DNA from: an uncultured Pseudomonadales bacterium
GTDB taxonomy: Bacteria; Patescibacteriota; Microgenomatia; UBA1400; MFAQ01
Direction: 5' to 3'
NCBI GenBank assembly: GCA_964586045.1
Contig: CAZPFY010000001.1
Coordinates: forward strand, 154-64,153
Length of the DNA: 64,000 nt
Shown: piece by piece, positions 5,075 through 50,524 of the stretch
How positions within the stretch are numbered: the first letter of the stretch is position 1
How the letters are laid out: each line of letters opens with the position of its first letter
Made by a program: the position numbers and the translations under genes
Notes under the pieces: generated by a model
What the model was told of the DNA's origin: nothing
What the model saw: the letters and a program-made list of their open reading frames with translations, nothing else
Databases searched by the model: none

Positions 5075-5190
5075 ATAGCATCGTTGTACATACCGAAGCC
5101 GCTGGTATCTGCAAAGCTTATAACTTTTGGTAATCCTTTTCCTTTTTGAGTCATTGTTTTCTTCTGTTTTTTGAATGGATGGTGAAGAAT

Positions 5191-5559
5191 TTAAAAACTT
5201 ACGGCAAAGTGGACCCAGCCTGCAGTTGTAGATAGAATCCTTAGTTTAACAACTACAACTTTGGTTTGGCCTTTGGGGACGGCCATAAAGTAGTAATCAA
5301 CGGCCTCGCTTTGTTCCTGGGTGTATTCTGATTTGGAAGTATCGATTCCCTCCTCATCAAATTGGACCAATGAAGTTTTTCCTAGAGATTTAATTATCAA
5401 GGTGTCTTTGTCAAAGCTGAGCTGGAGGCGCAGATTTGTTGGATTGAGACCTTCGATAACAAAAATTGGGAGGGAAGTTTCTTTGTCTGGTTTGCTTGTC
5501 CTGACAAAAGCAACTCTTGTAATTTGTATTTGGTTGTAGCCAGGGTTTAAATGATTCAC
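5191..5559 (-). CDS. hypothetical protein
   Basis: 122-aa ORF with a GTG start preceded by AAGGAG. It is the last gene of a three-gene minus-strand operon. Confidence 0.5.
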   Translation of the reverse strand: MNHLNPGYNQIQITRVAFVRTSKPDKETSLPIFVIEGLNPTNLRLQLSFDKDTLIIKSLGKTSLVQFDEEGIDTSKSEYTQEQSEAVDYYFMAVPKGQTKVVVVKLRILSTTAGWVHFAVSF

Positions 5560-32471: not shown

Positions 32472-34145
32472 TTAGGATTTGCTACCTAGTTTAGGGTAAA
32501 TGTATTCGGAAAAGGTGTATTGAAGCGAGAGGTAGAAGTAGACAAGGAGATAGCTGTTTGGAAAGAAGTATAGGCCAATAGAGGAACTGACTATCGCAGT
32601 AATGAGAGGAATTAGTTTGATGGAGTAGAAGTAACCTTGAAGCTCTTCTTTTGCCCCTAAAAACCTTTTGGGAGATGGTGATAGACAGACATCATTTAAG
32701 ATATTGCTGGGTAGAATTTGATTTTTCCAGGTATATCCTGTTTTCTTTAAAGTGATAAAAGATTTGTTTGGTAGACGGGAAGGAAAGAAAATATTTCCCT
32801 TAATGTCACTTACAGTGCGATATACTTTTTTATTTAATTTGTCTGGGTTATACAGTTCGATAAAAGTAAATGGTGTTGTTGAGACGCTTTTTCTTTTTAA
32901 GAAAGGAAACCCGAGCGTAAAGATAAAGCTAAGAAAATTACTCAAGTTTGCGTTAACTGCGATGCTTGTAATAACGAGATGTATAGGTAGGCCGAGACAG
33001 AGGAAGAAGAGAAGGATGTAAATACCACCATTGAGACCTTTCTTTTGAGAAATTATTTTTTGTGGTGGTAGGGAAGGGGCTGGTGGGGTTTTGGCTAGAT
33101 AAGGAGTGGGGGTTATGAGAGTAGAGAGCTCTGAGGGTGGTTTAAGGGTTTCGGTTACGGGCAATAACTCTCCTGAGTCCGTAGCAGTGTTTTCAAGATA
33201 TGGATTGTAGCCCTCTGGGAGTGTTTCTGGTTCTACGAGAATATAATCACTCTGTGATTCTTGGGCGGGTGCTTCGGGAATATATGTTGGAGTAATGGTC
33301 AGTAAACTTGTTGGTTCTAGAGATGGTCCTGGTTCACCTGGTGTTGAGGTGTACAGCAGGTAAAATGGGGGGAATATTGTGGAGTTGCTTGTGGCATCAG
33401 TTGCCGAGAGTTGAATGGTGTATGTAACCCCTGGAATTAGGTTCATAAACTGCTTTTCCCAGTTTCCGTCTGTGGAGTTTGTAATCCATGATTGAGTAAC
33501 GCATTCCGAAGGAGCATTTGTGGGACAAATAAGACTTACCTGAAGATTGGAGTTAGCTTCTACTTTGCCACCAATTAAAGCATTTTCGGTATCAACAAAG
33601 AGATATCTGTTTGGTTCATCTGGTATTGTGGTGGGATTGGTAGTGTCCCAGTTGTATTCAGTTTGGTTGACCTTAGTAAGAGAGATAAAGGGGGAAATGG
33701 TGTCGATATAAAAGTTCCAATTCCCTGTGGTTGCGTTTTGTCCGACGTTGTCGTATACAGCAACTTTCCAGGTATGATAACCCTCCGATGGACTTTGCTT
33801 TAGGGTTACGTAGAAGTAATTTCCTGATGAACTAGCGGTATAAAAATAATAGTCTTGAAAAACAATAGAGTCGGATATTGAGGCCGCAAAAACTACGTTG
33901 TCTATATATAAATCATAGTGGTGTAAATTTAGAGGGTTGGGGGTTGGTCTGAGCCAGATGAATTTAATTAGGCCACTGTTTGTAGCGAAGTTGTTTGGTG
34001 GGGCTACAAGGCTGGGGGGGTAGAAATTGGTGGAGGCGACGCTGGCAGAGACCTTAGAATTGCTACTTGTAGGGTTGGCGGCGTTGGCAAAGTTAACCTT
34101 TAGAAAAATTATGACTAATAGGGCGGCGATAATTTTTCGACCCAT
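32472..34145 (-). CDS. secreted/membrane-anchored surface protein (signal peptide, Ig/fn3-like N-region, Pro/Thr-rich linker, C-terminal TM segments)
   Basis: 557 aa. Signal MGRKIIAALLVIIFLKVNFANA, a beta-rich region, a PTP-rich linker, and hydrophobic helices at about aa 370-400 and 510-545. Confidence 0.55.
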   Translation of the reverse strand: MGRKIIAALLVIIFLKVNFANAANPTSSNSKVSASVASTNFYPPSLVAPPNNFATNSGLIKFIWLRPTPNPLNLHHYDLYIDNVVFAASISDSIVFQDYYFYTASSSGNYFYVTLKQSPSEGYHTWKVAVYDNVGQNATTGNWNFYIDTISPFISLTKVNQTEYNWDTTNPTTIPDEPNRYLFVDTENALIGGKVEANSNLQVSLICPTNAPSECVTQSWITNSTDGNWEKQFMNLIPGVTYTIQLSATDATSNSTIFPPFYLLYTSTPGEPGPSLEPTSLLTITPTYIPEAPAQESQSDYILVEPETLPEGYNPYLENTATDSGELLPVTETLKPPSELSTLITPTPYLAKTPPAPSLPPQKIISQKKGLNGGIYILLFFLCLGLPIHLVITSIAVNANLSNFLSFIFTLGFPFLKRKSVSTTPFTFIELYNPDKLNKKVYRTVSDIKGNIFFPSRLPNKSFITLKKTGYTWKNQILPSNILNDVCLSPSPKRFLGAKEELQGYFYSIKLIPLITAIVSSSIGLYFFPNSYLLVYFYLSLQYTFSEYIYPKLGSKS

Positions 34146-34150
34146 GAGTG

Positions 34151-35110
34151 TTATTTCCTTTCCAAGATATGGATTTCCTTTTGAAGTTCTCGAACTTCTT
34201 TTTCGAGTTCGTCTTGGTGCCTTTTGCTGCGTTTGTTAAGCAAGATGATGACTGTTAGAGCTGAGATTAGGGCTACAAGTGAGTAAATGACTAGACGGAT
34301 TGGAAAAAGCCAAAAGAAAATTGTTGCGCTCAAGACACTGTCTTGACTGCCGTAGATAAGATTGAGTTCTGCTTTGTATTTTCCATAACCCCATTTTTGA
34401 TTCCAGGCGGCGGAAATGAGCTTGGTATTGTCCGGGAAAATGTTTCCGAGGTCCAAAGGAATTCTGGATACTTCTTTGTTAAATAAATCGGTAATGGTTA
34501 TTGATCCTTTTGGTTGAATATGAATATCAGAAGTATTTTCGATGGTTCCTGTAAACTCGATTGGTCCTTTTTCGGTGAATTTTGGAGAAGTAAAAGAGGT
34601 GATTGTTGCTTTTTCGTTTATTTTTCCTTTTATGGTGAGATAAATTAGACTACCAACTCGTTGACCGATGATGGTAGCTGTTTTTTTTAGTTCCCCTGGT
34701 TTTATTTCGGCGTTGGGCATGTAAGTTACCATGGCATAATGACCACCTGGCAATGCAGAGTGTGGTACTCGAATAATGATTTCGATGTTTTGAGTGGCTT
34801 TTGAGTCGACAGGAATGAGCTTGGGAGCACTGATCCATTTGCGAAGCGACCATTTACTGGTGATGTTTTCGGAAATTGGAATTGGGGTGCCACTAAGATC
34901 ATCTACGATAAAATCATTTACAAAAACAGTATAGTTTTGTGAGATTTCGGAGTCGTTTCTGACTTTTAGGGTAGCTCTTATAGTTTCGCCCGGCTTGGCT
35001 TCGATTTGAAGTCGGGGTGGAATGGCGGTGATGGTTGATTCGGCAAAAGTTGGAGTGGAAAATAAAAATAAAAAGAGAGAAAAAATTAAGATGAGATTTA
35101 TTTTTTTCAT
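34151..35110 (-). CDS. DUF916/DUF3324-like cell-surface protein (signal peptide, beta-sandwich, C-terminal TM and charged tail)
   Basis: 319 aa. Signal peptide, then PPRLQIEAKPGETIRATLKVRNDSEISQNYTVFV, as in the DUF916 N-region. C-terminal TM FFWLFPIRLVIYSLVALISALTVIILL followed by a KRSKRHQDELEKE tail. Paralogous to 36567..37559. Confidence 0.5.
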   Translation of the reverse strand: MKKINLILIFSLFLFLFSTPTFAESTITAIPPRLQIEAKPGETIRATLKVRNDSEISQNYTVFVNDFIVDDLSGTPIPISENITSKWSLRKWISAPKLIPVDSKATQNIEIIIRVPHSALPGGHYAMVTYMPNAEIKPGELKKTATIIGQRVGSLIYLTIKGKINEKATITSFTSPKFTEKGPIEFTGTIENTSDIHIQPKGSITITDLFNKEVSRIPLDLGNIFPDNTKLISAAWNQKWGYGKYKAELNLIYGSQDSVLSATIFFWLFPIRLVIYSLVALISALTVIILLNKRSKRHQDELEKEVRELQKEIHILERK

Positions 35111-36538
35111 TTAGAAAGAGGCTGTGGCAGTATAAGTAATTTGGTTTTCGTAGTCTCCAGCGGCTTGAGTAGCGTCGACGGTAACACGGTAACAAACGTT
35201 GGCGGTGTTGCTATTGGCTACTGTGGTGTTTGACATAATGGTGGCAACTAGAGGAGCATCTGGATCTGCGACGGAGGGGAATTTGCGTGCGTTGAAAGCT
35301 GCACCAGAAGAGGTAAAGGGAACCGTAGCTCCAGAAACGGATTTGAGGGTGTAGCCAAAGCCAGGATGGGCAGTAGCGGTGTCCCAAGTGTCGGAAACTG
35401 TTTCGCTGGCTGTTCCAGCGTCTCCTGTAGTGTCGGGAATAAATGGAGTGGTACCGCCATTTTTACCAAGTTGATCGTTTTCTTGGGCGGTTACAATGTA
35501 GCCGTTAGAGGCGTTGGTGGAAACAGTGAGGAGGTGGGCTGCATCCTTGAAGGTATTTAAAGCTAAGGTGCCAAAAGGGACGGCCAGGGGAGCATTTGTG
35601 CCAGTTGTAGTGTCGACGTCTGTTTGGTTTGTAACGCCTGTGCCACACGGGTTGGCACCTGAAGCTACTCCTGCAATAGTAAAGGTGATAGTTGGATCGA
35701 CTGTAGCGGTGACTCTGACTGATTCGATAACAGCGACTTTGCCACTACTGCTGTCAATTTCGGTATCAACATCGTCGTAGTTTTTTACTTGAAAAGTATA
35801 AGTATCAGCTGTTGCTTGAGTGTGTCCAGTGGCAGGAGCTGGGGCTATTGGGGTGTTGGCTCCACTGCCAATAGTGATAGTGATAGGGGTGGAGACGCCA
35901 CCAGCGCCAGAATAATGGACTTCAAAACAGTGGTAGTTGGCTGGGGAAGTACAACCTGTCCCACCTGATGTGGTTGCAACGCCAGCAACAAAGGTGTATC
36001 CGGTTGTATCGGTGCCTGATACGGTAACCGTTCCGCCACCAAAATCAAAACCGTCGTCGTCTGGGCTTCCGTCGTTTGGGGTCGTAGCGTCAGCGGGTAA
36101 AAGAACGCGAAAATAACCATTGGCGACCGCCGAGGCGGTGTTGAAAGTTACGACATGTTGAGGTTTTGATTTTAAATATACCGGGTCGTTATCGTCTGTA
36201 TCTCCGGCGGCTAAAACTGGAGAAACGGAAAATTCACTGGAGTTTAATATACCGACAACAGTGTAGGAGCCTGTGCCGATGGTAAGGCTGTCGCCGATTC
36301 GAAGATTGGCGGTTGAAATGGTATTTGCCGGGGCAGAAGCAACGGTTTTGATCATAACGTTCGAGCTTCCGGTAAAAGTACCTGAAGAATCGACGCGGGC
36401 ATTAATGGAAATTCTGGAGGATTGAAGGGTATCTTTGACGACGGTAAGGTTGGATGAGTCTGTTTCGATAGGGTTTGATACAAAAAAGATTATTGAAAGA
36501 CCAAGGAAAAATGGCAAAAACTTCTTTTTTGTGGACAC
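35111..36538 (-). CDS. secreted beta-rich surface protein (WxL-like candidate), paralog of 37561..38430
   Basis: 475 aa. Signal peptide, Thr/Gly/Ala-rich beta-strand composition, and a C-terminal tail TQAAGDYENQITYTATASF that aligns with SQTAGTYQNGIQYLAIPAF of the paralog. The W..D..GFGY motif is shared. Confidence 0.5.
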   Translation of the reverse strand: MSTKKKFLPFFLGLSIIFFVSNPIETDSSNLTVVKDTLQSSRISINARVDSSGTFTGSSNVMIKTVASAPANTISTANLRIGDSLTIGTGSYTVVGILNSSEFSVSPVLAAGDTDDNDPVYLKSKPQHVVTFNTASAVANGYFRVLLPADATTPNDGSPDDDGFDFGGGTVTVSGTDTTGYTFVAGVATTSGGTGCTSPANYHCFEVHYSGAGGVSTPITITIGSGANTPIAPAPATGHTQATADTYTFQVKNYDDVDTEIDSSSGKVAVIESVRVTATVDPTITFTIAGVASGANPCGTGVTNQTDVDTTTGTNAPLAVPFGTLALNTFKDAAHLLTVSTNASNGYIVTAQENDQLGKNGGTTPFIPDTTGDAGTASETVSDTWDTATAHPGFGYTLKSVSGATVPFTSSGAAFNARKFPSVADPDAPLVATIMSNTTVANSNTANVCYRVTVDATQAAGDYENQITYTATASF

Positions 36539-36566
36539 TATATATTTAGATTACTACACTATCGCT

Positions 36567-37559
36567 TTAATTATCAACTACCTGATTTTTGTTTGTAACT
36601 TTAGATATAATTTTCAGTAGGACGAAAGATATAAAAATGGTGGCACCAGATTTGAATGGGAAGAAAAAGATATCAATAGAATTGCTGGTATTTGTGTTTT
36701 CTGATTTGACGTTAAAGCTAAGTGTATGCAAGCCAACTATTCTTAGCGTTGGAGAAAAGAAAAAGGGTTTTTCGTTGGAAGAGATAAGTGTTCGAGAAGA
36801 CTTGGAAATGACATATTGAGGAAGTATACCTTGAAGAAAAAGAACCTCGGAGTTTTTTTTGTTAGTTAATTTAAAGGTACCTTTGGTTTCGGTTAGGGAT
36901 GGTCCCTCGTTGGTAGCGATTGCGGTTACAGTAATGGGGGTAAGGTTGTCAGCATAATAGCGACGACCAATTTTGACAAAACTACCCGAAGTGATGGTTA
37001 TTTTTTCAATTTTTAAAATGGTGTTGGGATTTATTTCTGGAGTTATAGAAATAAGAAGATTGGCGCCAATTGAGGAACCAATACTAATATTTTTTTGATC
37101 TCCGCTTATTGAGTTATCGTAGGTTGAGAATAGTAAGGTGGTGTAAAGATCTTCGGCATTAGCGGTTTCGGGTACAGAAAGGCTGACCACTATTTGTTGC
37201 TTATTTTTGGCTTTTAGTAAAAATGGTTCGTCAAACTTTATTTCTGAGTTGGAGAGGTTGAAGTATTTTAACCAGGAAGCACTTGCTTTGATGTCAATGG
37301 TGGGATTGCCATTGTTGTCAGCTTTGTTGAAGGGGATGACTCTAACAACAAGATATTTGTCAGTGTTTTCGATGTTTTCAATAGTAAAACTTTTGGTAAT
37401 TGATTTACCAGGTTTTATTTGAACTCGAACAAGGGGTGGATCGAGAGAGAGGCCGACTGGCGAGGCTTGTGTGGGAGTAGCAACTGCGAATAAACAAAAT
37501 ATTATTACGATGCCTGACTTGACTAGTAATTTAGCAAATAAAATATTTTTCGTCTTCAT
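36567..37559 (-). CDS. DUF916/DUF3324-like cell-surface protein (second copy)
   Basis: 330 aa. Signal peptide, then PPLVRVQIKPGKSITKSFTIENIENTDKYLVVRVIPF, similar to the 34151..35110 N-region. C-terminal TM ATIFISFVLLKIISKV. Confidence 0.5.
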   Translation of the reverse strand: MKTKNILFAKLLVKSGIVIIFCLFAVATPTQASPVGLSLDPPLVRVQIKPGKSITKSFTIENIENTDKYLVVRVIPFNKADNNGNPTIDIKASASWLKYFNLSNSEIKFDEPFLLKAKNKQQIVVSLSVPETANAEDLYTTLLFSTYDNSISGDQKNISIGSSIGANLLISITPEINPNTILKIEKITITSGSFVKIGRRYYADNLTPITVTAIATNEGPSLTETKGTFKLTNKKNSEVLFLQGILPQYVISKSSRTLISSNEKPFFFSPTLRIVGLHTLSFNVKSENTNTSNSIDIFFFPFKSGATIFISFVLLKIISKVTNKNQVVDN

Positions 37560-37560
37560 A

Positions 37561-38430
37561 TTAAAAGGCTGGGATGGCTAAATACTGAATTCCGTTTTGG
37601 TAAGTTCCTGCTGTTTGCGATCCGGAAATGTTTAGTTTGTAAGTGACAATAGCACTGGAGTCTGTGGCTGTGGCTGAAGCTCTGGTCATTACTGTACTGG
37701 GTTGGTCAGTTCCTTGAATGGGGAAGGGGCGGAAATAAGTTGTGTTGACAAAATCTGTATCTGCGTTGGTGCCGGTTGCATTATAGCCAAAGCCGTAACG
37801 AGTATCGTCTGTCCAGGGCGTAGCGTCGGTGATAGTGCAAGGGGTGGCAAGATTGCAGCTGGTGTCGGGAATTGTAGTTGAGCCGTTGGTTAGTCTTAGG
37901 GGGTGATCTTGAATTACTTTGACGTTGAAACCGTATGAGCTGCCGGTGGATACAGTAAGAACATTTGTAAGGGTGCTTGGGGTCCCGGGGACTAAAGTGC
38001 CGTAGCTCAGGTCAATGTCAGAGATGGTAAAGGTGAAGGGAATGGAGTTGGCGAGATATTGAAAGCCGGCTTTTATGGTATAGCCACTTGAGTTAAATTC
38101 GCCTTGAGCTGTTTGCCCCACAGTGTCATTTAGTTTGTACGACGTGGAACTTTTTGATCCTCCCGTAATATTAATAGTTCCCATTTTTATTTCAAAACCT
38201 GGGGAAGAGAGGTTGTCAGCGAAAGTTGATGATGGAAAAAAAACGATAAAAACAAACACTGCAATAGTAATTACTACAAGACTATTTTTATTAAAAAAAG
38301 TCTTAAATAAGGCTAAATGGTGGCTATTTGGAGTGCCATCAGCCGTGGAGTGTGTCTTTCTGATGTATTTTGATAAGCTAATCATTTTTACTTTGATATA
38401 TTTCGTGTTTGTGCCTGGTGGGGTATACAT
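37561..38430 (-). CDS. secreted beta-rich surface protein (WxL-like candidate), paralog of 35111..36538
   Basis: 289-aa ORF. The real start may be the internal Met (MISLSKY, about 38385). Signal anchor LVVITIAVFVFIVFFPSSTFA. LTVSTGSSYGFNVKV aligns with LTVSTNASNGYIVTA of the paralog. The C-terminus is YLAIPAF. Confidence 0.5.
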   Translation of the reverse strand: MYTPPGTNTKYIKVKMISLSKYIRKTHSTADGTPNSHHLALFKTFFNKNSLVVITIAVFVFIVFFPSSTFADNLSSPGFEIKMGTINITGGSKSSTSYKLNDTVGQTAQGEFNSSGYTIKAGFQYLANSIPFTFTISDIDLSYGTLVPGTPSTLTNVLTVSTGSSYGFNVKVIQDHPLRLTNGSTTIPDTSCNLATPCTITDATPWTDDTRYGFGYNATGTNADTDFVNTTYFRPFPIQGTDQPSTVMTRASATATDSSAIVTYKLNISGSQTAGTYQNGIQYLAIPAF

Positions 38431-38458
38431 AACCCGAAGAGATTAACAATTATTTTAT

Positions 38459-39199
38459 TTATATGTTTTTATTATCAGATGATTCTTTTATAGTATCTTC
38501 TAGGTCCTCGCTAGAAGAATAAAGGGTTAAAAGGTCAATTTGGATCGATTTTATTTTGTCCAAAAAGCTTTTGGGAAACTGAATGTTGTTGCGGCTGGAG
38601 TTGAGAAAAATAATTAAATCGGTAACCGAATTGATAACGGTGTTGATTGTGGGCTTGGCTTCGGTGGCGAGCCAGAGTAAACTGTCGGTTTCTTCTTTCT
38701 TGATGTTATCTTTTAACAAAGAAATTTTTCCCTCGGCCTCAAGATTTTTAATCATAATTTTGGCAAAAGATTGGGCGAGGGGGGAAATTAAAAGCAGGGA
38801 AAATAAATTGGCGAGAGTGAGGATATCAAACTCAAAATTGGTTTTTACTAAATAGATGGTAGCGGTACAGATAGCAATAGTGAAACTTTGGTAGCTTTCG
38901 TATATGAGGGCAAAAGCAAAAATCAAAAAATAGTATAAGAAAAAAAGTGGAGAAGACGCACCGCCAGTTGAAAGTATCAAGAGTTGGGTAATAGCGTTTG
39001 TTGCAAGGATGGTAAGAATGTTTGGGTCAAAATTGTGATATGTTGCAAGCAAAACTTTTTTGGAGACGGTGTAGAGGATTATAAGAGCTCCGCAAAGCTG
39101 GAGAGTGTAGTTTGAGGTTAAGATATTCTCACTCCACAGAAAGGGTAGTAGGCAGGAAGCGGCAATAAGGCTAGTGTGGAGAAGAAAACCTTGTTTCAT
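38459..39199 (-). CDS. polytopic membrane protein with a C-terminal soluble domain (first gene of the surface-locus operon)
   Basis: 246 aa. About five hydrophobic helices in the first 150 aa, then a charged C-terminal region. Confidence 0.45.
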   Translation of the reverse strand: MKQGFLLHTSLIAASCLLPFLWSENILTSNYTLQLCGALIILYTVSKKVLLATYHNFDPNILTILATNAITQLLILSTGGASSPLFFLYYFLIFAFALIYESYQSFTIAICTATIYLVKTNFEFDILTLANLFSLLLISPLAQSFAKIMIKNLEAEGKISLLKDNIKKEETDSLLWLATEAKPTINTVINSVTDLIIFLNSSRNNIQFPKSFLDKIKSIQIDLLTLYSSSEDLEDTIKESSDNKNI

Positions 39200-39458
39200 T
39201 AATTAAATATAGCAAATATATTAAATTAAAAATTTAAATTTATAGATTCTTTGGTGATATATTTTGTTATTAAATTGGCAATATATATATTTGAGTGATT
39301 ATTGTTTTGGGCATAAATAAGATATTGGATAACAGATGTCAGGTATCAGATGTCTGATGTGTTTCTTAGAGATGGATCAGCCTTTGGATGAAGAAGTCAG
39401 GTGATTGATAAGACCTCACTTCTAATATTGACATGGATTTTTGCTAAAATAAATTAAA

Positions 39459-40058
39459 GTGTTAGATAAATTTAAAGATGTTTATCGAAAAACTGGAGAT
39501 TTGGAAAAATGGATGGGTGTTTTTGCGCTGTTGGGTGTGCTTGTTGCCTTTGTTGGCCTTTTTAGAGGTATTCTAGTGTCTCGTCAGGTTCAAATTGAGT
39601 ACCTAAACACAGATAAGAAGACTACAGAGGAAATTAAAATAGTGGTAGACATAGAGGGGGCAGTAAATAAACCGGGGGTGTACGAACTTTTAAATAATTC
39701 TAGGATAAAAGATATTTTGGTCTTGGCTGGAGGATATAGTGAAAAAGCAGATAGAACATACTGCGAAAAAATGATTAATTTGGCTTCAACCTTAAAAGAC
39801 GCTCAAAAAATTTACATCCCTTTTGTTAATGATACCCCGAAGGTGCTAGGGTATACTGAGGCTAATTCAGCTACAAAACTGATCAATATGAACACCGCTT
39901 CTGATAGTGAACTTGATACCCTTTGGGGTATAGGTGAGTCCAGAATAGAGAATATTGTGAAAAATAGACCATACCAAAGTGTCGAAGAGCTCGTTACAAA
40001 AAAAGTTTTTACGAAACAAATTTTGGAAAAAAATAAGGAGATGATAGTGGTTTATTAA
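39459..40058 (+). CDS. comEA: competence protein ComEA (SLBB plus helix-hairpin-helix DNA-binding domains)
   Basis: GTG start. N-terminal TM, SLBB-like VVDIEGAVNKPGVYEL, and a C-terminal HhH MNTASDSELDTLWGIGESRIENIV. Confidence 0.85.
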   Translation: MLDKFKDVYRKTGDLEKWMGVFALLGVLVAFVGLFRGILVSRQVQIEYLNTDKKTTEEIKIVVDIEGAVNKPGVYELLNNSRIKDILVLAGGYSEKADRTYCEKMINLASTLKDAQKIYIPFVNDTPKVLGYTEANSATKLINMNTASDSELDTLWGIGESRIENIVKNRPYQSVEELVTKKVFTKQILEKNKEMIVVY

Positions 40059-40059
40059 C

Positions 40060-41178
40060 ATGCAAAAAAGGGTTTTTGCATTAGTCTTGTTACTTGTTTT
40101 GAGAATTATTATCGGTTTTGTTATTAATGCCAGATACTATCAATTTGAACAAATTAGAGTTACGGGAAAAGTGATCAGAGTGATTCAGATAGATAATAAC
40201 TGCATCATAGATTTGGGAGTATTTAGAGCAAAGATGGAGAACCGATGCGCCTTTAAAAAAGGCGAGTTTGTGAGGGTTGTTGGCAGACCTACAGCTGGTT
40301 TGATAGAGCTTCTTGGGGGTAAAATACTCTTGAACACGGCGATATTTGATTATTCTGAAAATAAGGATTTACTTGTTATGAGATTTGATTTTTGGCAGTC
40401 CACTTTTGGGCGACTGAGAGATTATTGCAGAGAAGTTTACCAAAGATTGTTGCCTAGGAACGAGTCGGCTTTGCTTGCGGGAATAGTTTTGGGGGATAAA
40501 GAAAGTATAGGCTATGATTTTTATCAGAATATGGTGAGAAGCGGAACAATCCATGTGGCTGTGGCCTCTGGATATAACTTGATGCTGGTGGGGGGAGTTA
40601 TTTTGAATTTGTTGTTTTGGATTTTTGAAAGGAAAAAAGCTACGATCTTTGCAGTTTTGGCCATGGCTTGTTATGCGGTTCTGGCGGGGTTTGAGCCACC
40701 TGTGGTGAGAGCTTTGATAATGTCGAGTTTGTTGCTTGTTGGCGCAGTGTTGGGGAGGAAGACAGCCCCTGTTTGGTTTTTAATAATTAGTGCTTGGGTA
40801 ATGCTGGTTTGGGACATGGATTTGCTTTGGAATGTTAGCTTTCAGCTTTCGGTTATGGCAAGTGTAGGGTTAATGGTGTTTGCGCCTTGGGTACAGGAAA
40901 TATTTAGGATAAAGGGGTTGGAGAAGGAAGGAATTGGTTTGGAAAAATTCGGCTTAATAACAACGGTGTGCACTATGTTGGCAACGGCACCAGTTATTTG
41001 GTGGCATTTTGGTAGAATAAGTATAATAGGCGTATTTAGCAATGTTTTTATATTGCCACTTGTCCCTCCAGTAATGATTCTTGGAGTTTTCACACTACTT
41101 ATGCCCGGACTGTTTTTTGTGCCTACTTATGCTCTGGTCCATCTTATGGTTTTGATAATTAACTTTTTTGGAACTTGA
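40060..41178 (+). CDS. comEC: ComEC/Rec2 membrane competence domain (N-terminal DUF4131-like plus Competence domain), a separate ORF from the MBL domain
   Basis: LLAGIVLGDKESIGYDFYQNMVRSGTIHVAVASGYNLMLVGG matches the ComEC competence-domain motif. It is polytopic. Confidence 0.8.
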   Translation: MQKRVFALVLLLVLRIIIGFVINARYYQFEQIRVTGKVIRVIQIDNNCIIDLGVFRAKMENRCAFKKGEFVRVVGRPTAGLIELLGGKILLNTAIFDYSENKDLLVMRFDFWQSTFGRLRDYCREVYQRLLPRNESALLAGIVLGDKESIGYDFYQNMVRSGTIHVAVASGYNLMLVGGVILNLLFWIFERKKATIFAVLAMACYAVLAGFEPPVVRALIMSSLLLVGAVLGRKTAPVWFLIISAWVMLVWDMDLLWNVSFQLSVMASVGLMVFAPWVQEIFRIKGLEKEGIGLEKFGLITTVCTMLATAPVIWWHFGRISIIGVFSNVFILPLVPPVMILGVFTLLMPGLFFVPTYALVHLMVLIINFFGT

Positions 41179-41242
41179 CATAGATATTTTAAACCTATAA
41201 AATACTAGACAATTGAACGTAAATTGAAATTGGGAGGTACAA

Positions 41243-41431
41243 ATGCTGAGAGATTTGGCGGAGTCGCTGTTTTTTTTGGGAATGGTGGTTGTTATTATTA
41301 AGTTCGGTTGGCAGCTGGTAGACTGGATTATGAGCATGCTGTACGTTCTATCTTTTGGATGCTGCCTGGGTATTGTGGCTTTGATTGGGGGAGCCATATA
41401 TTTCTTTGGAAATAGAGAAAACTTTTTTTAA
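41243..41431 (+). CDS. small hydrophobic ORF between the two comEC parts
   Basis: 62 aa, two hydrophobic helices. It may be a remnant of the ComEC membrane region in a different frame. Confidence 0.3.
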   Translation: MLRDLAESLFFLGMVVVIIKFGWQLVDWIMSMLYVLSFGCCLGIVALIGGAIYFFGNRENFF

Positions 41432-41473
41432 TCTCACCTGATTTAGGTGGGATTTTTTGTGGCAAAATAAACT

Positions 41474-42253
41474 GTGGATTGGAAAAAGTGGGGGGTGGTA
41501 ATTGTTCTTCTTTTATCTATTTGGATATATTTTGAGTGGCCAGATAATAAACTGCATGCGGTTTTTTGTGATGTAGGGCAGGGAGACGCAGCCTTAATTG
41601 TTTTGGGTAGATTTCAAGCTTTGGTAGATACTGGGGCGTATGAAGATAAAGTTTTGCAGTGCCTAGCTGATCACGTTCCTTTTTGGGACAGACAAATTGA
41701 GCTGGTTTTTTTGAGCCATGCGGATAAAGATCACGTCGGAGCTCTGGAGGGGATAAAAAAGCATTACAAGATTGGTAATGTAATTAGTAAGGCAAAGGAA
41801 AATGATTTAATAAGATATGGAACGTTATATTTTGAGATATTAAAAGGGAGTCAAAATAATGTGTTGGTACCCATGAGCGGATCGAGTGAATCGAATGAAT
41901 CGTCGATTGTGATGAGAATGGCTTTTGGTAAGCTGTCGGTGCTTTTTACGGGAGATATTGATATGGAGAATGAATTGGCACTGATTGCTAGTGGAGTGCT
42001 AAGGCAAACAGAGGTGTTAAAAGTGTCGCATCACGGCTCTAAGTTTGCAAGTGGCTCTGAGTTTTTGGAAAAGGTTATGCCTAAGTACGCAATTGTCTCG
42101 GTAGGAAAGAAAAATAGTTATGGCCACCCAAGTAGTGATACTTTGATGCGTTTAGACACTGTTAAAACAAAAGTTTTGCGAACGGATTTAATAGGGGAAA
42201 TTGAGTTTGTGAGCGATGGGAGTCGGTTGGTCGGTGTGTCGGCAGATCGGTAA
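41474..42253 (+). CDS. comEC: ComEC C-terminal metallo-beta-lactamase domain protein
   Basis: HAVFCDVGQGDAALIV, FLSHADKDHVGAL and VSHHGSKFASGSEFLEKV form the ComEC-type MBL fold. Confidence 0.8.
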   Translation: MDWKKWGVVIVLLLSIWIYFEWPDNKLHAVFCDVGQGDAALIVLGRFQALVDTGAYEDKVLQCLADHVPFWDRQIELVFLSHADKDHVGALEGIKKHYKIGNVISKAKENDLIRYGTLYFEILKGSQNNVLVPMSGSSESNESSIVMRMAFGKLSVLFTGDIDMENELALIASGVLRQTEVLKVSHHGSKFASGSEFLEKVMPKYAIVSVGKKNSYGHPSSDTLMRLDTVKTKVLRTDLIGEIEFVSDGSRLVGVSADR

Positions 42254-42308
42254 TCGGTGGCACAGCGACACGGAGTCACAAAAAGACACCCTTGCGGGTG
42301 TCGGATTT

Positions 42309-42902
42309 TTATTTCATGCGTTTTGAAAGGAGTAAGGCTTGGGCTTGGACGAGTTCTGTGGAGATGTAACTCATTTGCGCAAGCAGTTTTACAGAATATC
42401 CTCGATCACGAGGTTCTATATCTTTGTCGGTGAGGAACTTGGCCCAGTGTTCTGATAGGATTACGTTTTCGAGAAGAGAGCGAAACTTGGGATCGTTACC
42501 AATGTAGCCGGTGTTAGCCATAATTTCAATCATGGCTCGCAGAGTGACGATGGGGTCGCAGGCGAGTAGCCAATCAAATATCTTGTCAAAATGATTTTCC
42601 CAAATGTCTTGAATTGAGGTGATTTCGGAAGGCCCGAAACGACCAGTAGCCATGATCCATTTGAGAGGGCTCCCGGGAGCATATTCTTCTATGCCTATCC
42701 AAAGATGGCCGGGTAAAATAGATGGATAGGGGCGAATGACAATATTGTCGATTGTAGTTGGTTCATTGATCATACTTGGGTGGACAAGGCAGAGATTTGG
42801 TTTCGAACCGTGCTTTTTGGCGTAGTAATCGACCGCATTCTGGATCTTCTGTCCAAGAGTGGTCTTTGGGTCATTGTCGAACCATAACATTCCAGTGTGC
42901 AT
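42309..42902 (-). CDS. hypothetical protein
   Basis: 197-aa ORF with no recognizable motif. Confidence 0.45.
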   Translation of the reverse strand: MHTGMLWFDNDPKTTLGQKIQNAVDYYAKKHGSKPNLCLVHPSMINEPTTIDNIVIRPYPSILPGHLWIGIEEYAPGSPLKWIMATGRFGPSEITSIQDIWENHFDKIFDWLLACDPIVTLRAMIEIMANTGYIGNDPKFRSLLENVILSEHWAKFLTDKDIEPRDRGYSVKLLAQMSYISTELVQAQALLLSKRMK

Positions 42903-43014
42903 AAGAGCTCCTTTTGTGAAAGAATTTTGGCTATTTTAGCATGGTTTGGGGAAATATGATACAATATAGGATGACTTAAGCAGTCGTATCTTTGAATAAA
43001 TTAGGAGGTGTAAC

Positions 43015-43400: not shown

Positions 43401-43575
43401 GTATCAAAAAAGTAATTTTATTTTGATTTGCTCACACAAAAACCGAACGCTATTTCGCCAGCGCGAAATCCGTTCTTGTTTGCAGCCAAAAATCCCGCCT
43501 GAGCGGGAACCAGCTTTTTGGCTTTGCGCAATATTTTTGTTTTGAGTAAATCGAAATGTTATTTTTTGATATCTG

Positions 43576-44865: not shown

Positions 44866-44875
44866 GCAAAAAATT

Positions 44876-44898
44876 GCCTCCCATAAGGGAGGTCTTTT
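44876..44898 (+). terminator. rho-independent terminator after the M16 peptidase gene
   Basis: GCCTCCCATAAGGGAGGT hairpin followed by CTTTTCG. Confidence 0.6.
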
Positions 44899-45052
44899 CG
44901 ATTGGGAATCTGCAAGGGTTAGGGTATTCAATACTTCATGAGTAAGCTCCGTTGCACGGCCTTATCGGCAATTAGTCCGGTTACGCTGGAAAGCGGCCAC
45001 CTGGTTTTTTGAATCAGTTAGGAGCAAATGGCTCCATACCAGGGTGCTAATA

Positions 45053-45110
45053 GGTAGTATTATAACCTATAGTTGCTAATTTGTCAAGTTGGGGAATTTT
45101 TGGCAAAAAA
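45053..45110 (+). repeat. conserved intergenic motif copy A (GGTAGTATTATAACCTATAGTTGCTAATTTGTCAAG, then TTTTTGGCAAAAAAA)
   Basis: Near-identical ~35-bp motif found four times in the window. It may be a promoter or operator. It is immediately followed by a bidirectional terminator-like hairpin at 45112-45165. Confidence 0.6.
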
Positions 45111-45615
45111 ATAACCTGTGTCCATCAGCTTTCGCTATTGATGACTACAGGTTTTTTTGGTTTCGGCTTAAGTATCCGTAACGTTGGCGGCCGCGCTCCC
45201 CACTTTCTGGCGTCCCAACGTGTTAGGTCCTTTATCGCTTCTATGTGTCCTGGGAAGAGGATACTCTGATGAATGTGGAATCTCAACAGATGTCAATTTC
45301 TCCCGATCACCACTGAAAAGCGGTGTTTTAACTTGTCCAAACTACTCTACGCTCCGAGGTTAATCGGGCACTAAGATTCCTTTTTAAGGCCGCTTAATAG
45401 AGATTTACGCTTGGTGATAAGTTTGCTGGACTACGGTGCATAGCCCCACAGGCCTCGTCAATGGACGTCTTACCTTACCTGTGGGGCCACAATATCATTT
45501 TGATTTTTAATGCTCCTTTTTTACACCGGCTCGGCCGGGCTATTGAGGCGCGACTTTGTGCACCAAGGCTTTTTTTGAACCTGGGTTGTAAGAGGGGCGG
45601 GTTGCCCTTCTTGAT

Positions 45616-45674
45616 GAGGTTATTATATCTCATAATGTATCTGTGTCAATAACTAGTTTTTTTGGCAAAAAAAA
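45616..45674 (+). repeat. conserved intergenic motif copy D (divergent; TATTATATCTCATAATGTATCTGTGTCAAT, then TTTTTTGGCAAAAAAAA)
   Basis: Shares TATTATA, CTATA/TCATA, TGTCAA and the TTTTTGGCAAAAAAA extension with copy A. Confidence 0.45.
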
Positions 45675-46131
45675 TGCCAGGTAAGCGATGCAAGCGCGAT
45701 AGTGTCTCGACTAATCTGAGCCACTATGGTTGATATCGTCAGTACCTGGCAGGCCGGTTTTCGGCTGATGGCGACTCTCGTGAGTATCCCCCGAGAGAGT
45801 GCGAACCCATACGAATGGGTTATTCACCGTTATTAGCGGTGCAGCTTTTAAACTCATTGATTGACTCAGCGGGGGATTCCCGTGAAGTGCTTCAGATGAA
45901 GTTTCGCAATTGGGATAAGAATCTATATCACAATTTTGAGCTGCACGAGGGCTTTTCTCCTTTCTTTTCCGCTCAGGGGCGGGTTATTGCCGGCGATCGT
46001 GCCGGACTGTTTTTTTGTGTCCATCGACGCAGGTTCCTGCCTGGAGGGCGAGGATATCGGTGGACGGTGCAGTTTGGCGGATTTTCCGTTCGGGATAGTC
46101 GTTCAAGAGCATCCCTTATCAAACCAAATAT

Positions 46132-46167
46132 GGGAGTATTCTAGCCTATAGTTGCTAATTTGTCAAG
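46132..46167 (+). promoter_or_regulatory. conserved intergenic motif copy B, probably overlapping the promoter of the 46208 gene (TTGCTA, 17 nt spacer, TAGAAT)
   Basis: GGGAGTATTCTAGCCTATAGTTGCTAATTTGTCAAG, with TAGAAT 17 nt after TTGCTA. About 40 nt upstream of the ATG. Confidence 0.5.
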
Positions 46168-46207
46168 ACGATGGTAGAATTGGCCATCCTAATAGTTTGG
46201 AGGAACA

Positions 46208-50180: not shown

Positions 50181-50386
50181 TGCCAAAATTTAGTTTAAAA
50201 AAAAGAATCCCCGCTCTGGAGCGGGGTTCGGTTGGGGTGAAGTAGGTTGCTTGGCCTAAGTGTCTGTTGTCGCACCGTCGAAACGCAACAGTGGGGCTTA
50301 GCGGGCTCTAATCACACCCTTTTGGGTATGGAAGGAGGGGGAACCTCCTTTTTCGGGGCTGGATTTCCAGCAAAAGTTAAGTTGTA

Positions 50387-50421
50387 GGAGTATTTTATCC
50401 TATAATTGTTTATTTGTCAAC
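50387..50421 (+). promoter_or_regulatory. conserved intergenic motif copy C upstream of the 50525 gene
   Basis: GGAGTATTTTATCCTATAATTGTTTATTTGTCAAC is the same motif as copies A and B. Confidence 0.45.
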
Positions 50422-50524
50422 TTGGGTGGCTTGGGGCGATATTTATGATATCTTGTGCCTAAAATATGACAACTGATATGACAACTGACGAAATGTACTT
50501 GACAACTATATTTAAACTGTTAAA

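Follow-up and report, generated by a model that had tools for sequence, protein, structure and literature searches.

A probable two-gene ComEC with separate channel and nuclease genes in a group of Patescibacteria

INTRODUCTION

In a 64,000-nucleotide stretch of DNA from a groundwater Patescibacteria genome (the window), the DNA-uptake protein ComEC appears in pieces. One open reading frame (ORF1) encodes a Competence domain, another (ORF3) encodes a metallo-β-lactamase (MBL) domain, and a 62-residue ORF (ORF2) lies between them, all on the plus strand. Is this a natural two-piece ComEC or a frameshifted or interrupted gene? Both possibilities were raised in the initial annotation of the locus, as was the idea that the middle ORF represents the missing transmembrane (TM) segments read in another frame.

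One-piece ComEC serves as the structural reference. For Neomoorella carbonis ComEC, the cryo-electron microscopy report (PMC13539106) gives the order TM1-3, OB fold, NS1-4, TM4-7, NS5, TM8, TM9, NS6, NS7, TM10, the cytoplasmic helix CH1, TM11, and the MBL domain. TM4-9 and NS6 form the channel, with H254 and V258 named at its constriction, and TM1-3, TM10, and TM11 lie at its periphery. Both the OB fold and the MBL domain are located in the periplasm; a contact with the OB fold holds the MBL domain, which is otherwise attached through a flexible linker.

RESULTS

The two ComEC pieces are encoded by separate, adjacent genes across related loci

All three ORFs of the initial annotation were recovered with the same boundaries, strand, and frames (Table 1). 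We fetched 95 related loci, a few of them duplicates of one contig, and a script was used to place both halves of ComEC in each. In 67 loci, of Collierbacteria and other Microgenomates-type Patescibacteria, as in the window, a separate MBL ORF lies directly downstream of the Competence gene on the same strand, and no uninterrupted, fused Competence-MBL gene was found among these approximately 67 related loci. The loci that share the stop after the FFG motif and have a separate MBL gene span 27-66% identity. The projected gap between the channel gene (ComEC-N) and the MBL gene is -22 to +50 nt in approximately 43 loci, ATGA overlaps included; in six loci, ORFs in different frames overlap start to stop by a few nucleotides, with ATGA in the junction sequence of five. 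In more distant, Saccharibacteria-type loci, no MBL gene was found within 2-4 kb. The closest relative in both flanking genes is locus L012, with 66% identity in the N piece and 83% in the MBL piece. P0100, the only fused homologue in the comparison, runs through TM10, a basic loop, and TM11 into the MBL domain.

The protein searches gave a similar picture. Almost all of the approximately 70 ORF1 homologues are 363-383 aa long and Competence-only, at identities from 66% down to approximately 35%, and the best 120 homologues of ORF3 are all stand-alone MBL proteins of 218-310 aa, with Collierbacteria and the Microgenomates group among their source names. Moreover, for the channel piece the ratio of nonsynonymous to synonymous substitution rates (dN/dS; Nei-Gojobori, against loci L015 and L016) is 0.19-0.24, and for the MBL piece it is 0.11, indicating that both halves are under purifying selection.

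The sequence at the junction is reproducible. ENA and JGI contigs are base-for-base identical over window positions 39743-42931 (3189 nt), and a 1743-nt Logan contig from a groundwater metagenome is identical to the window from 41189 on. An error confined to one assembly therefore does not explain the stops. Translation of 41140-41520 in three frames gave stops in every frame and no ComEC-like peptide, which rules out a simple frameshift. ORF2 and ORF3 share a frame but are parted by three stops (TAA 41429, TAG 41444, and TAA 41468). With a promoter, a ribosome-binding site, and a terminator also intervening, as judged from the sequence, the ORFs are not collinear with ComEC through any single indel. 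On the NCBIfam model TIGR00361 (ComEC_Rec2, 663 positions), ORF1 covers positions 119-357 and ORF3 covers 424-661, so approximately 66 model positions are encoded by neither.

Relatives with ATGA overlaps keep TTTTTTGG at the end of gene 1, where, by eye, a -1 frameshift would join the frames. A programmed -1 frameshift on TTTTTTGG was nevertheless ruled out as the explanation, since the window has 295 nt with stops in all frames in between. Furthermore, from the published topology, a fusion without TM10 would leave the nuclease on the wrong membrane side.

A comEA-like gene precedes the pair; its TAA stop lies 1 nt ahead of the ComEC-N ATG, and relatives also have a comEA-like gene in this position. 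At the other end, a terminator-like hairpin closes both the comEA/comEC/MBL unit and a convergent gene (42309..42902, minus strand).

Collectively, the common stop and separate MBL gene, the retained protein lengths, and the purifying selection strongly support a natural, lineage-wide two-gene ComEC and not a broken gene. The arrangement would stem either from fission of a fused gene or from a state before fusion.

Table 1. Features of the comEC locus in the window
Feature	Coordinates	Strand	Details
comEA-like DNA-binding protein, SLBB and helix-hairpin-helix	39459..40058	+	Pfam HHH_3 38.9 bits, SLBB 37.3 bits; TIGR01259 comEA E 3.4e-14
ORF1, ComEC channel piece	40060..41178	+	372 aa, ATG, frame 1
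Sigma-70-type promoter-like site TTGACA-17-TAAAAT	41175..41203	+	11/12 matches, best site in 39200-42500
Shine-Dalgarno GGGAGG, 5 nt ahead of the ORF2 ATG	41232..41237	+	Read from the sequence
ORF2, small ORF	41243..41431	+	62 aa, ATG, frame 2
Intrinsic-terminator-like hairpin, 11 pairs and T-run	41430..41459	+	Terminator scan
Vestige of the ancestral MBL start, GTG GCA AAA, TAA at codon 4	41459..41470	+	Sequence comparison
ORF3, ComEC nuclease piece	41474..42253	+	259 aa, GTG, frame 2
Terminator-like hairpin	42285..42302	both	Scan: 7 pairs, T-run on each strand

Predicted architecture of the channel protein

ORF1 matches the Pfam Competence family (PF03772) at 150.6 bits (cutoff 23) and TIGR00361 at 70.3 bits, below the equivalog cutoff of 190.05. 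The initial annotation had ORF1 ending right after the competence domain; the domain assignment stands, but the Pfam match covers model positions 1-225 of 270, and the ORF thus stops inside the model. Pfam PF13567 (DUF4131) matches more distant homologues but not ORF1. The AlphaFold2 model, built from a 73-sequence alignment, has a predicted local distance difference test score (pLDDT) of 85.8 and a predicted template modelling score of 0.79, and it comprises a helix (residues 2-24), a beta domain (32-98), and a set of helices (110-371). For the OB-like beta domain, Foldseek returned only weak OB-fold matches (AspRS, LysRS, RPA, and Stn1; E ~1e-2). No full-length ComEC appeared among the Foldseek PDB matches of the ORF1 model, the searched library probably being without such entries.

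Searched against N. carbonis ComEC (30bt_A), the ORF1 family profile gives E 5.9e-59. In the profile alignment, H165 and V168 of the window protein align with the constriction residues H254 and V258, and the C-terminal FFGT aligns at approximately residues 459-462, just ahead of a beta strand and TM10. Additionally, H165, R217, F261, L263, P311, and N328 are invariant in the 73 ORF1-family sequences. Based on the model and the alignments, ORF1 is predicted to comprise one N-terminal TM helix, an OB-fold-like domain, NS1-4, TM4-9, NS6, and NS7, and ends before TM10.

The N pieces of more distant Microgenomates-type lineages (type B; Woyke-, Levy-, and Shapirobacteria) are 35-45 residues longer in a multiple alignment, and the extension consists of one hydrophobic helix and a basic tail. 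In these distant relatives, gene 1 thus still ends with TM10, which puts the break in the cytoplasmic loop between TM10 and TM11. As judged from this comparison, TM10 and CH1 are deleted in the window's clade. The ComEC modules without a counterpart in the two genes are TM1-2, TM10, and CH1. The ComEC-ComFC "hook/pocket" contact, which is Firmicutes-specific (PMC12663950), could not be mapped onto the missing TM10/CH1 segment.

Predicted architecture of the nuclease protein

The separate MBL ORF proposed initially was borne out: ORF3 matches Lactamase_B, and its match to TIGR00361 reaches E 4.8e-39 and 134 bits, also below the cutoff. Its sequence matches in the PDB are to the ComEC MBL domain (9ic4, E 3.8e-25; also 9vc6 and 30bt). 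The AlphaFold2 model (pLDDT 89.9) starts with MDWKKW and shows a helix at residues 3-21 followed by an MBL fold. Similarly, the best Foldseek match is the ComEC MBL domain 9ic4 (E 5.8e-20, TM-score 0.80), and the next fold is nine orders of magnitude worse (E 3.6e-11). ORF3 carries the ComEC-type MBL motifs DxGQGD, HxDxDH, D, HHGS, and GHP, and its motif residues align with those of the 9ic4 crystal structure. D33, Q36, G37, D38, H82, D86, H87, D161, H186, and H187 are invariant in 40 homologues. ORF3 is thereby predicted to consist of a short basic N-terminus, a TM11-equivalent helix serving as an N-in anchor, and a ComEC-type MBL domain.

Directly upstream of ORF3, the window retains a vestige of the ancestral MBL start; L016 reads ATG GCA AAA TAG there, and the frame is open in L015. 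With this start closed at codon 4 in the window and L016, translation would begin at the next GTG, position 41474 in the window. No Shine-Dalgarno sequence precedes this GTG, and the T-run of the upstream terminator-like hairpin is 14 nt ahead of it, so MBL expression presumably needs terminator read-through.

The small ORF and its cassette

As initially described, ORF2 is hydrophobic; a Kyte-Doolittle scan predicts two TM segments, the second of which (TM2) is rich in small residues, typical of helix packing. ORF2 is flanked by what look like its own expression signals. The promoter-like site upstream of it overlaps the TGA stop of ComEC-N, and the aligned position in L015 reads TTGACA-17-TATAAT. 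The Shine-Dalgarno sequence of the relatives' small ORFs is GGGAGG in L015 and AGGAG in L016. The downstream hairpin has a fold energy of -13.3 kcal/mol (z -3.5); in L015 and L016, the hairpins at the same place have different stems that still pair, followed by the same TTTTTT(G/A)TGGCAAAAT.

Homologues of ORF2 are extremely rare. An exhaustive phmmer search of 1.84 billion representatives returned, besides ORF2, a single protein, P0113 (61 aa, 40% identity, E 1.5e-7), which lies at exactly the same ComEC-N/MBL junction in L015. A profile search added one 58-aa protein; this version occupies the same place in L016 and L096 and is barely alignable. In total, 3-4 homologues exist in approximately 15 billion proteins, and a cutoff as loose as E <= 1 brought no family match from Pfam, NCBIfam, or PHROGs. 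Across relatives, ORF2 is 37-40% identical, versus 63% and 79% for the neighbouring genes. Against L015, its dN/dS is approximately 0.34 with dS near saturation, and the ratio of nonsynonymous to synonymous polymorphism proportions (pN/pS) is 0.57.

The suggestion that the middle ORF holds the missing TM segments in another frame was not upheld. ORF2 matches neither ComEC nor any other family, hhalign gave a probability of 0.1% for its similarity to the TM10-CH1-TM11 region, and most genomes with the same TM10-less N piece, L012 among them, have no small ORF; a displaced TM10/CH1 is thus ruled out. These comparisons indicate that ORF2 is a real, young, fast-evolving, lineage-restricted two-TM gene inserted at the junction and not derived from ComEC.

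Type I toxin-antitoxin systems consist of a small hydrophobic toxin and an overlapping antisense RNA with its own promoter. ORF2 would resemble such toxins, or the accessory subunits of membrane machines, in being approximately 60 aa long, hydrophobic, and fast-evolving and in having a promoter, a strong ribosome-binding site, and a terminator of its own; its product differs from these in having two TM helices and in matching no family. The only minus-strand promoter-like site seen near ORF2 is weak (9/12, at 41572-41544).

The ComEC-N/MBL junction as an insertion hotspot

Based on the compared loci, the ComEC-N/MBL junction is an insertion hotspot. Where the gap exceeds approximately 100 nt, its content varies by lineage, and most relatives have a tight junction or other inserts. 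The small-ORF cassette is present in the window, L015, and L016; a structured RNA-like motif of approximately 110 nt is present in L013, L014, L002 (two copies), L018, and, weakly, L005; and other GC-rich or repeated non-coding elements are present in L001, L012, L040, and L003. In more distant Patescibacteria, the junction holds a PaaX-like gene of 220-254 aa (L054 1371-2033, L057 5243-5917, L059 5231-5995, L064 5116-5829, and L065 1585-2280), and the three of these genes that were scanned (L054, L057, and L059) score 67-78 bits against Pfam PaaX_M. An Rfam search of the relatives' spacers gave no match.

L016 has approximately 87 nt extra after the gene-1 stop (5127-5215) compared with the window and L015. 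This stretch contains a perfect 10-bp inverted repeat, TATCAATAAC TG GTTATTGATA, which is operator-like in appearance.

Other elements in the window and its relatives

The window carries a single copy of the approximately 110-nt motif (43435-43541, plus strand), 35 nt upstream of an M16 peptidase gene. Further copies were found in L013 (5151-5262), L014 (5150-5263 and 6108-6214), L002 (5198-5308 and 5389-5500), L018 (5158-5268), and L026 (6251-6358), with a weak copy in L005 (4968-5044). In relatives, the motif lies within the ComEC-N/MBL spacer or just after the MBL gene, and all copies are on the comEC strand. In shape, AAACCGA on the 5' side is followed by a hairpin whose loop is C(C)UGC, then by a second hairpin and a UGCGCAAUAUUUUU tail; the second hairpin combines an outer stem of 8-10 bp with an inner hairpin of 6 bp that has an ACCNNGC bulge. 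Covariation is strong, with 94% of cells paired versus 36-52% in slid controls and 24-27 pairs with compensatory changes. The motif has no match in Rfam.

On the minus strand, 44870-46170 is a 1.3-kb region without an ORF of at least 110 aa. It holds three sigma-70-type promoter-like sites (45649-45622, 45087-45059, and 46166-46138), two of which match at 12/12 and one at 11/12. A hairpin and T-run can be seen by eye downstream of each, although the scan called only the hairpin at 44892-44877. To judge from the sequence, the region appears to hold three genes for non-coding RNAs. Over 392 nt, the middle unit shares 83% identity with L001 8302-8687, well above the conservation of the neighbouring proteins, and it shows a compensatory stem change relative to L001. 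No Rfam match was obtained at E <= 1, and the fold z-score is -2.5. A 36-nt direct repeat, GGTAGTATTATAACCTATAGTTGCTAATTTGTCAAG, occurs at 45053-45088 and 46132-46167, with a partial third copy at 50385-50426, and is the reverse complement of the consensus minus-strand promoter of this region.

Upstream of comEA, six minus-strand ORFs (32472-39199) have no Pfam match except a faint one to Big_13; they include a 246-aa ORF at 38459..39199. A similarly sized minus-strand ORF block is kept beside comEA in relatives. Finally, L016, L017, L019, L022, and others of the closest metagenome-assembled genomes are titled "uncultured Pseudomonadales" or "Gammaproteobacteria" despite their Collierbacteria/Microgenomates-type loci, and the taxonomy labels of these Third Party Annotation records look unreliable.

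DISCUSSION

We consider it probable, on comparative grounds, that the window encodes a two-gene ComEC transcribed after comEA, with a junction opened by a young small-ORF insert. Gene 1 would make the DNA channel. Gene 2 would make the strand-degrading MBL nuclease, inserted into the membrane by its TM11-equivalent helix with the basic N-terminus inside and the catalytic domain outside. The two proteins would assemble in the membrane, and the nuclease would dock on the OB fold as in the cryo-electron microscopy structure. ComEA would then deliver double-stranded DNA, the MBL piece would degrade one strand, and the other strand would enter by way of the channel. The genes overlap (ATGA) or abut in most relatives, whereas in the window's sub-lineage the junction would have been opened and now holds a self-contained cassette. 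The 62-aa protein would be a fast-evolving two-TM insert that is dispensable in most relatives, and the MBL protein would be made by terminator read-through and initiation at GTG 41474.

Several points weigh against this proposal. We infer the association of the two pieces from their conserved adjacency and the one-piece structure only. Without TM10 and CH1, the complex could be different or weaker. Expression of the nuclease may be poor here, given its start without a Shine-Dalgarno sequence behind a T-run. Furthermore, in L096 (a 628-nt ENA contig with coverage 0.5), an L016-type cassette and the MBL start lie behind a different, non-ComEC-N ORF, which hints at the ComEC halves becoming unlinked; L096 reflects either such a rearrangement or a chimeric low-coverage contig. 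The upstream ORF of L096 is acetyltransferase-like by eye, and homology to L016 starts right after its stop.

In one alternative, the two proteins no longer act as one machine: gene 1 would make a nuclease-less channel, as in Helicobacter or in most ComEC proteins of the Candidate Phyla Radiation, and gene 2 an independent, membrane-anchored extracellular nuclease, used for example in nucleotide scavenging. The covalent link, TM10/CH1, is gone; in several lineages, expression of the two genes is uncoupled by inserts at the junction that bring terminators or entire genes; and both the placement of the MBL gene in L096 and the Saccharibacteria-type loci without a nearby MBL gene are in line with separate functions. 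In addition, Candidate Phyla Radiation (CPR) bacteria are thought to scavenge DNA for nucleotides (PMC6744442). We nevertheless regard this alternative as unlikely. Adjacency, strand, and start/stop overlap are kept across the approximately 43 tightly spaced loci, and the MBL protein is specifically of the ComEC type and keeps the TM11-equivalent helix. Moreover, one-piece ComEC positions its nuclease by a non-covalent contact with the OB fold, so covalent linkage is not obviously required.

A further alternative, which we find quite unlikely, makes the small protein a third subunit of the translocon that structurally stands in for the lost TM10/CH1 or ties nuclease and channel together. Such a role would be compatible with its two TM helices, the small residues of TM2, its dN/dS below 1, and its location, which is precisely the junction in three genomes and immediately upstream of the MBL gene on a fourth contig. 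However, most genomes with the TM10-less N piece, L012 among them, lack it, and it is dissimilar to the TM10-TM11 region, which fits poorly with a required subunit. It also evolves far faster than its neighbours and has its own strong promoter and terminator instead of translational coupling. Improbable, too, is the broader form of this idea, a three-protein translocon of the window's sub-lineage in which the 62-aa protein would be a new subunit that both replaces TM10/CH1 and docks the nuclease, with the adjacent genes of Microgenomates-type bacteria representing the pre-fusion ancestor of one-piece ComEC.

That ORF2 is a chance ORF in a non-coding spacer is very improbable. It is short and has almost no homologues, as might be expected of a chance ORF, but the same length and two-TM layout recur in L015 at 40% identity with promoter, GGGAGG, and terminator aligned, the terminator stems differ yet pair, and both substitution ratios are below 1. 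Finally, a decaying comEC pseudogene, produced by a frameshift, a nonsense mutation, or a sequencing error in a non-transformable organism, can hardly be entertained: two ComEC-like ORFs in different frames, 295 nt apart, with a partial Competence match and approximately 66 TIGR00361 positions missing would suit decay, whereas the same arrangement in approximately 67 diverged loci with none fused, the low dN/dS, the invariant catalytic residues, the stops and expression signals in place of one indel, and the identical sequence in several assemblies speak against it.

The proposed two-gene ComEC shares much with one-piece ComEC/Rec2 (Bacillus subtilis ComEC, N. carbonis 30bt, and TIGR00361): the channel, preceded by a putative OB fold, the constriction His and Val, an MBL nuclease with the same metal-binding motifs, the comEA neighbour, and a collinear order of parts. 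In contrast, it is made of two polypeptides, has one N-terminal TM helix instead of three, is without TM10 and CH1, and uses TM11 as an independent signal anchor; neither piece reaches the TIGR00361 cutoff. The channel piece is also similar to the Competence-only ComEC proteins (the "C" profile, PMC6299819; Helicobacter pylori ComEC; and CPR fam000603, PMC6744442), which have no fused MBL domain, and the single N-terminal TM helix is likewise reported for H. pylori ComEC. Unlike in those cases, a conserved ComEC-type MBL gene lies immediately downstream here, and the nuclease therefore appears relocated and not lost. The Mycoplasma MAG0480 ComEC-like and MAG0490 ComEA-like families (NF045979 and NF045978) similarly combine ComEA with a short ComEC in a reduced genome and give weak matches (E 3.8e-13 and 1.6e-11). 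However, the scores (49 versus 150 and 44.2 versus 98) are far below the cutoffs, so the window proteins are not members, and no partner MBL gene is implied for that Mycoplasma family.

Pimentel and Zhang 2018 (PMC6299819) class ComEC by the domains within one protein, with "Competence-only" as one class, and Meheust et al. 2019 (PMC6744442) report only six CPR genomes with an MBL-fused ComEC, a form they call "essentially absent" there. The sections covered of these two papers contain no mention of a separate adjacent MBL gene, and those of Baker et al. 2016 and of the ComEC structural papers no description of a split ComEC. Some annotation pipelines label the MBL piece "competence protein ComEC". 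Within the text covered, the split, which varies a well-known machine at the level of its genes and is widespread in one group of Patescibacteria, has apparently not been pointed out before.

The window and approximately 67 related loci indicate that a large Patescibacteria group keeps its ComEC nuclease as a separate, membrane-anchored protein encoded by an adjacent gene. Because the nuclease is on its own gene, surveys that count domains per protein undercount it, and automatic annotation could easily misread the two genes as a single broken one. In this organism, what the ComEC step of DNA uptake requires genetically looks intact and not degraded; comEC-dependent transformation in Saccharibacteria is the only experimental precedent in Patescibacteria (PMC10633639). 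The split arrangement amounts to a natural experiment in how ComEC is built, and it suggests that the nuclease can work without covalent attachment to the channel and that TM10 and CH1 are dispensable, matching their peripheral place in the cryo-electron microscopy structure.

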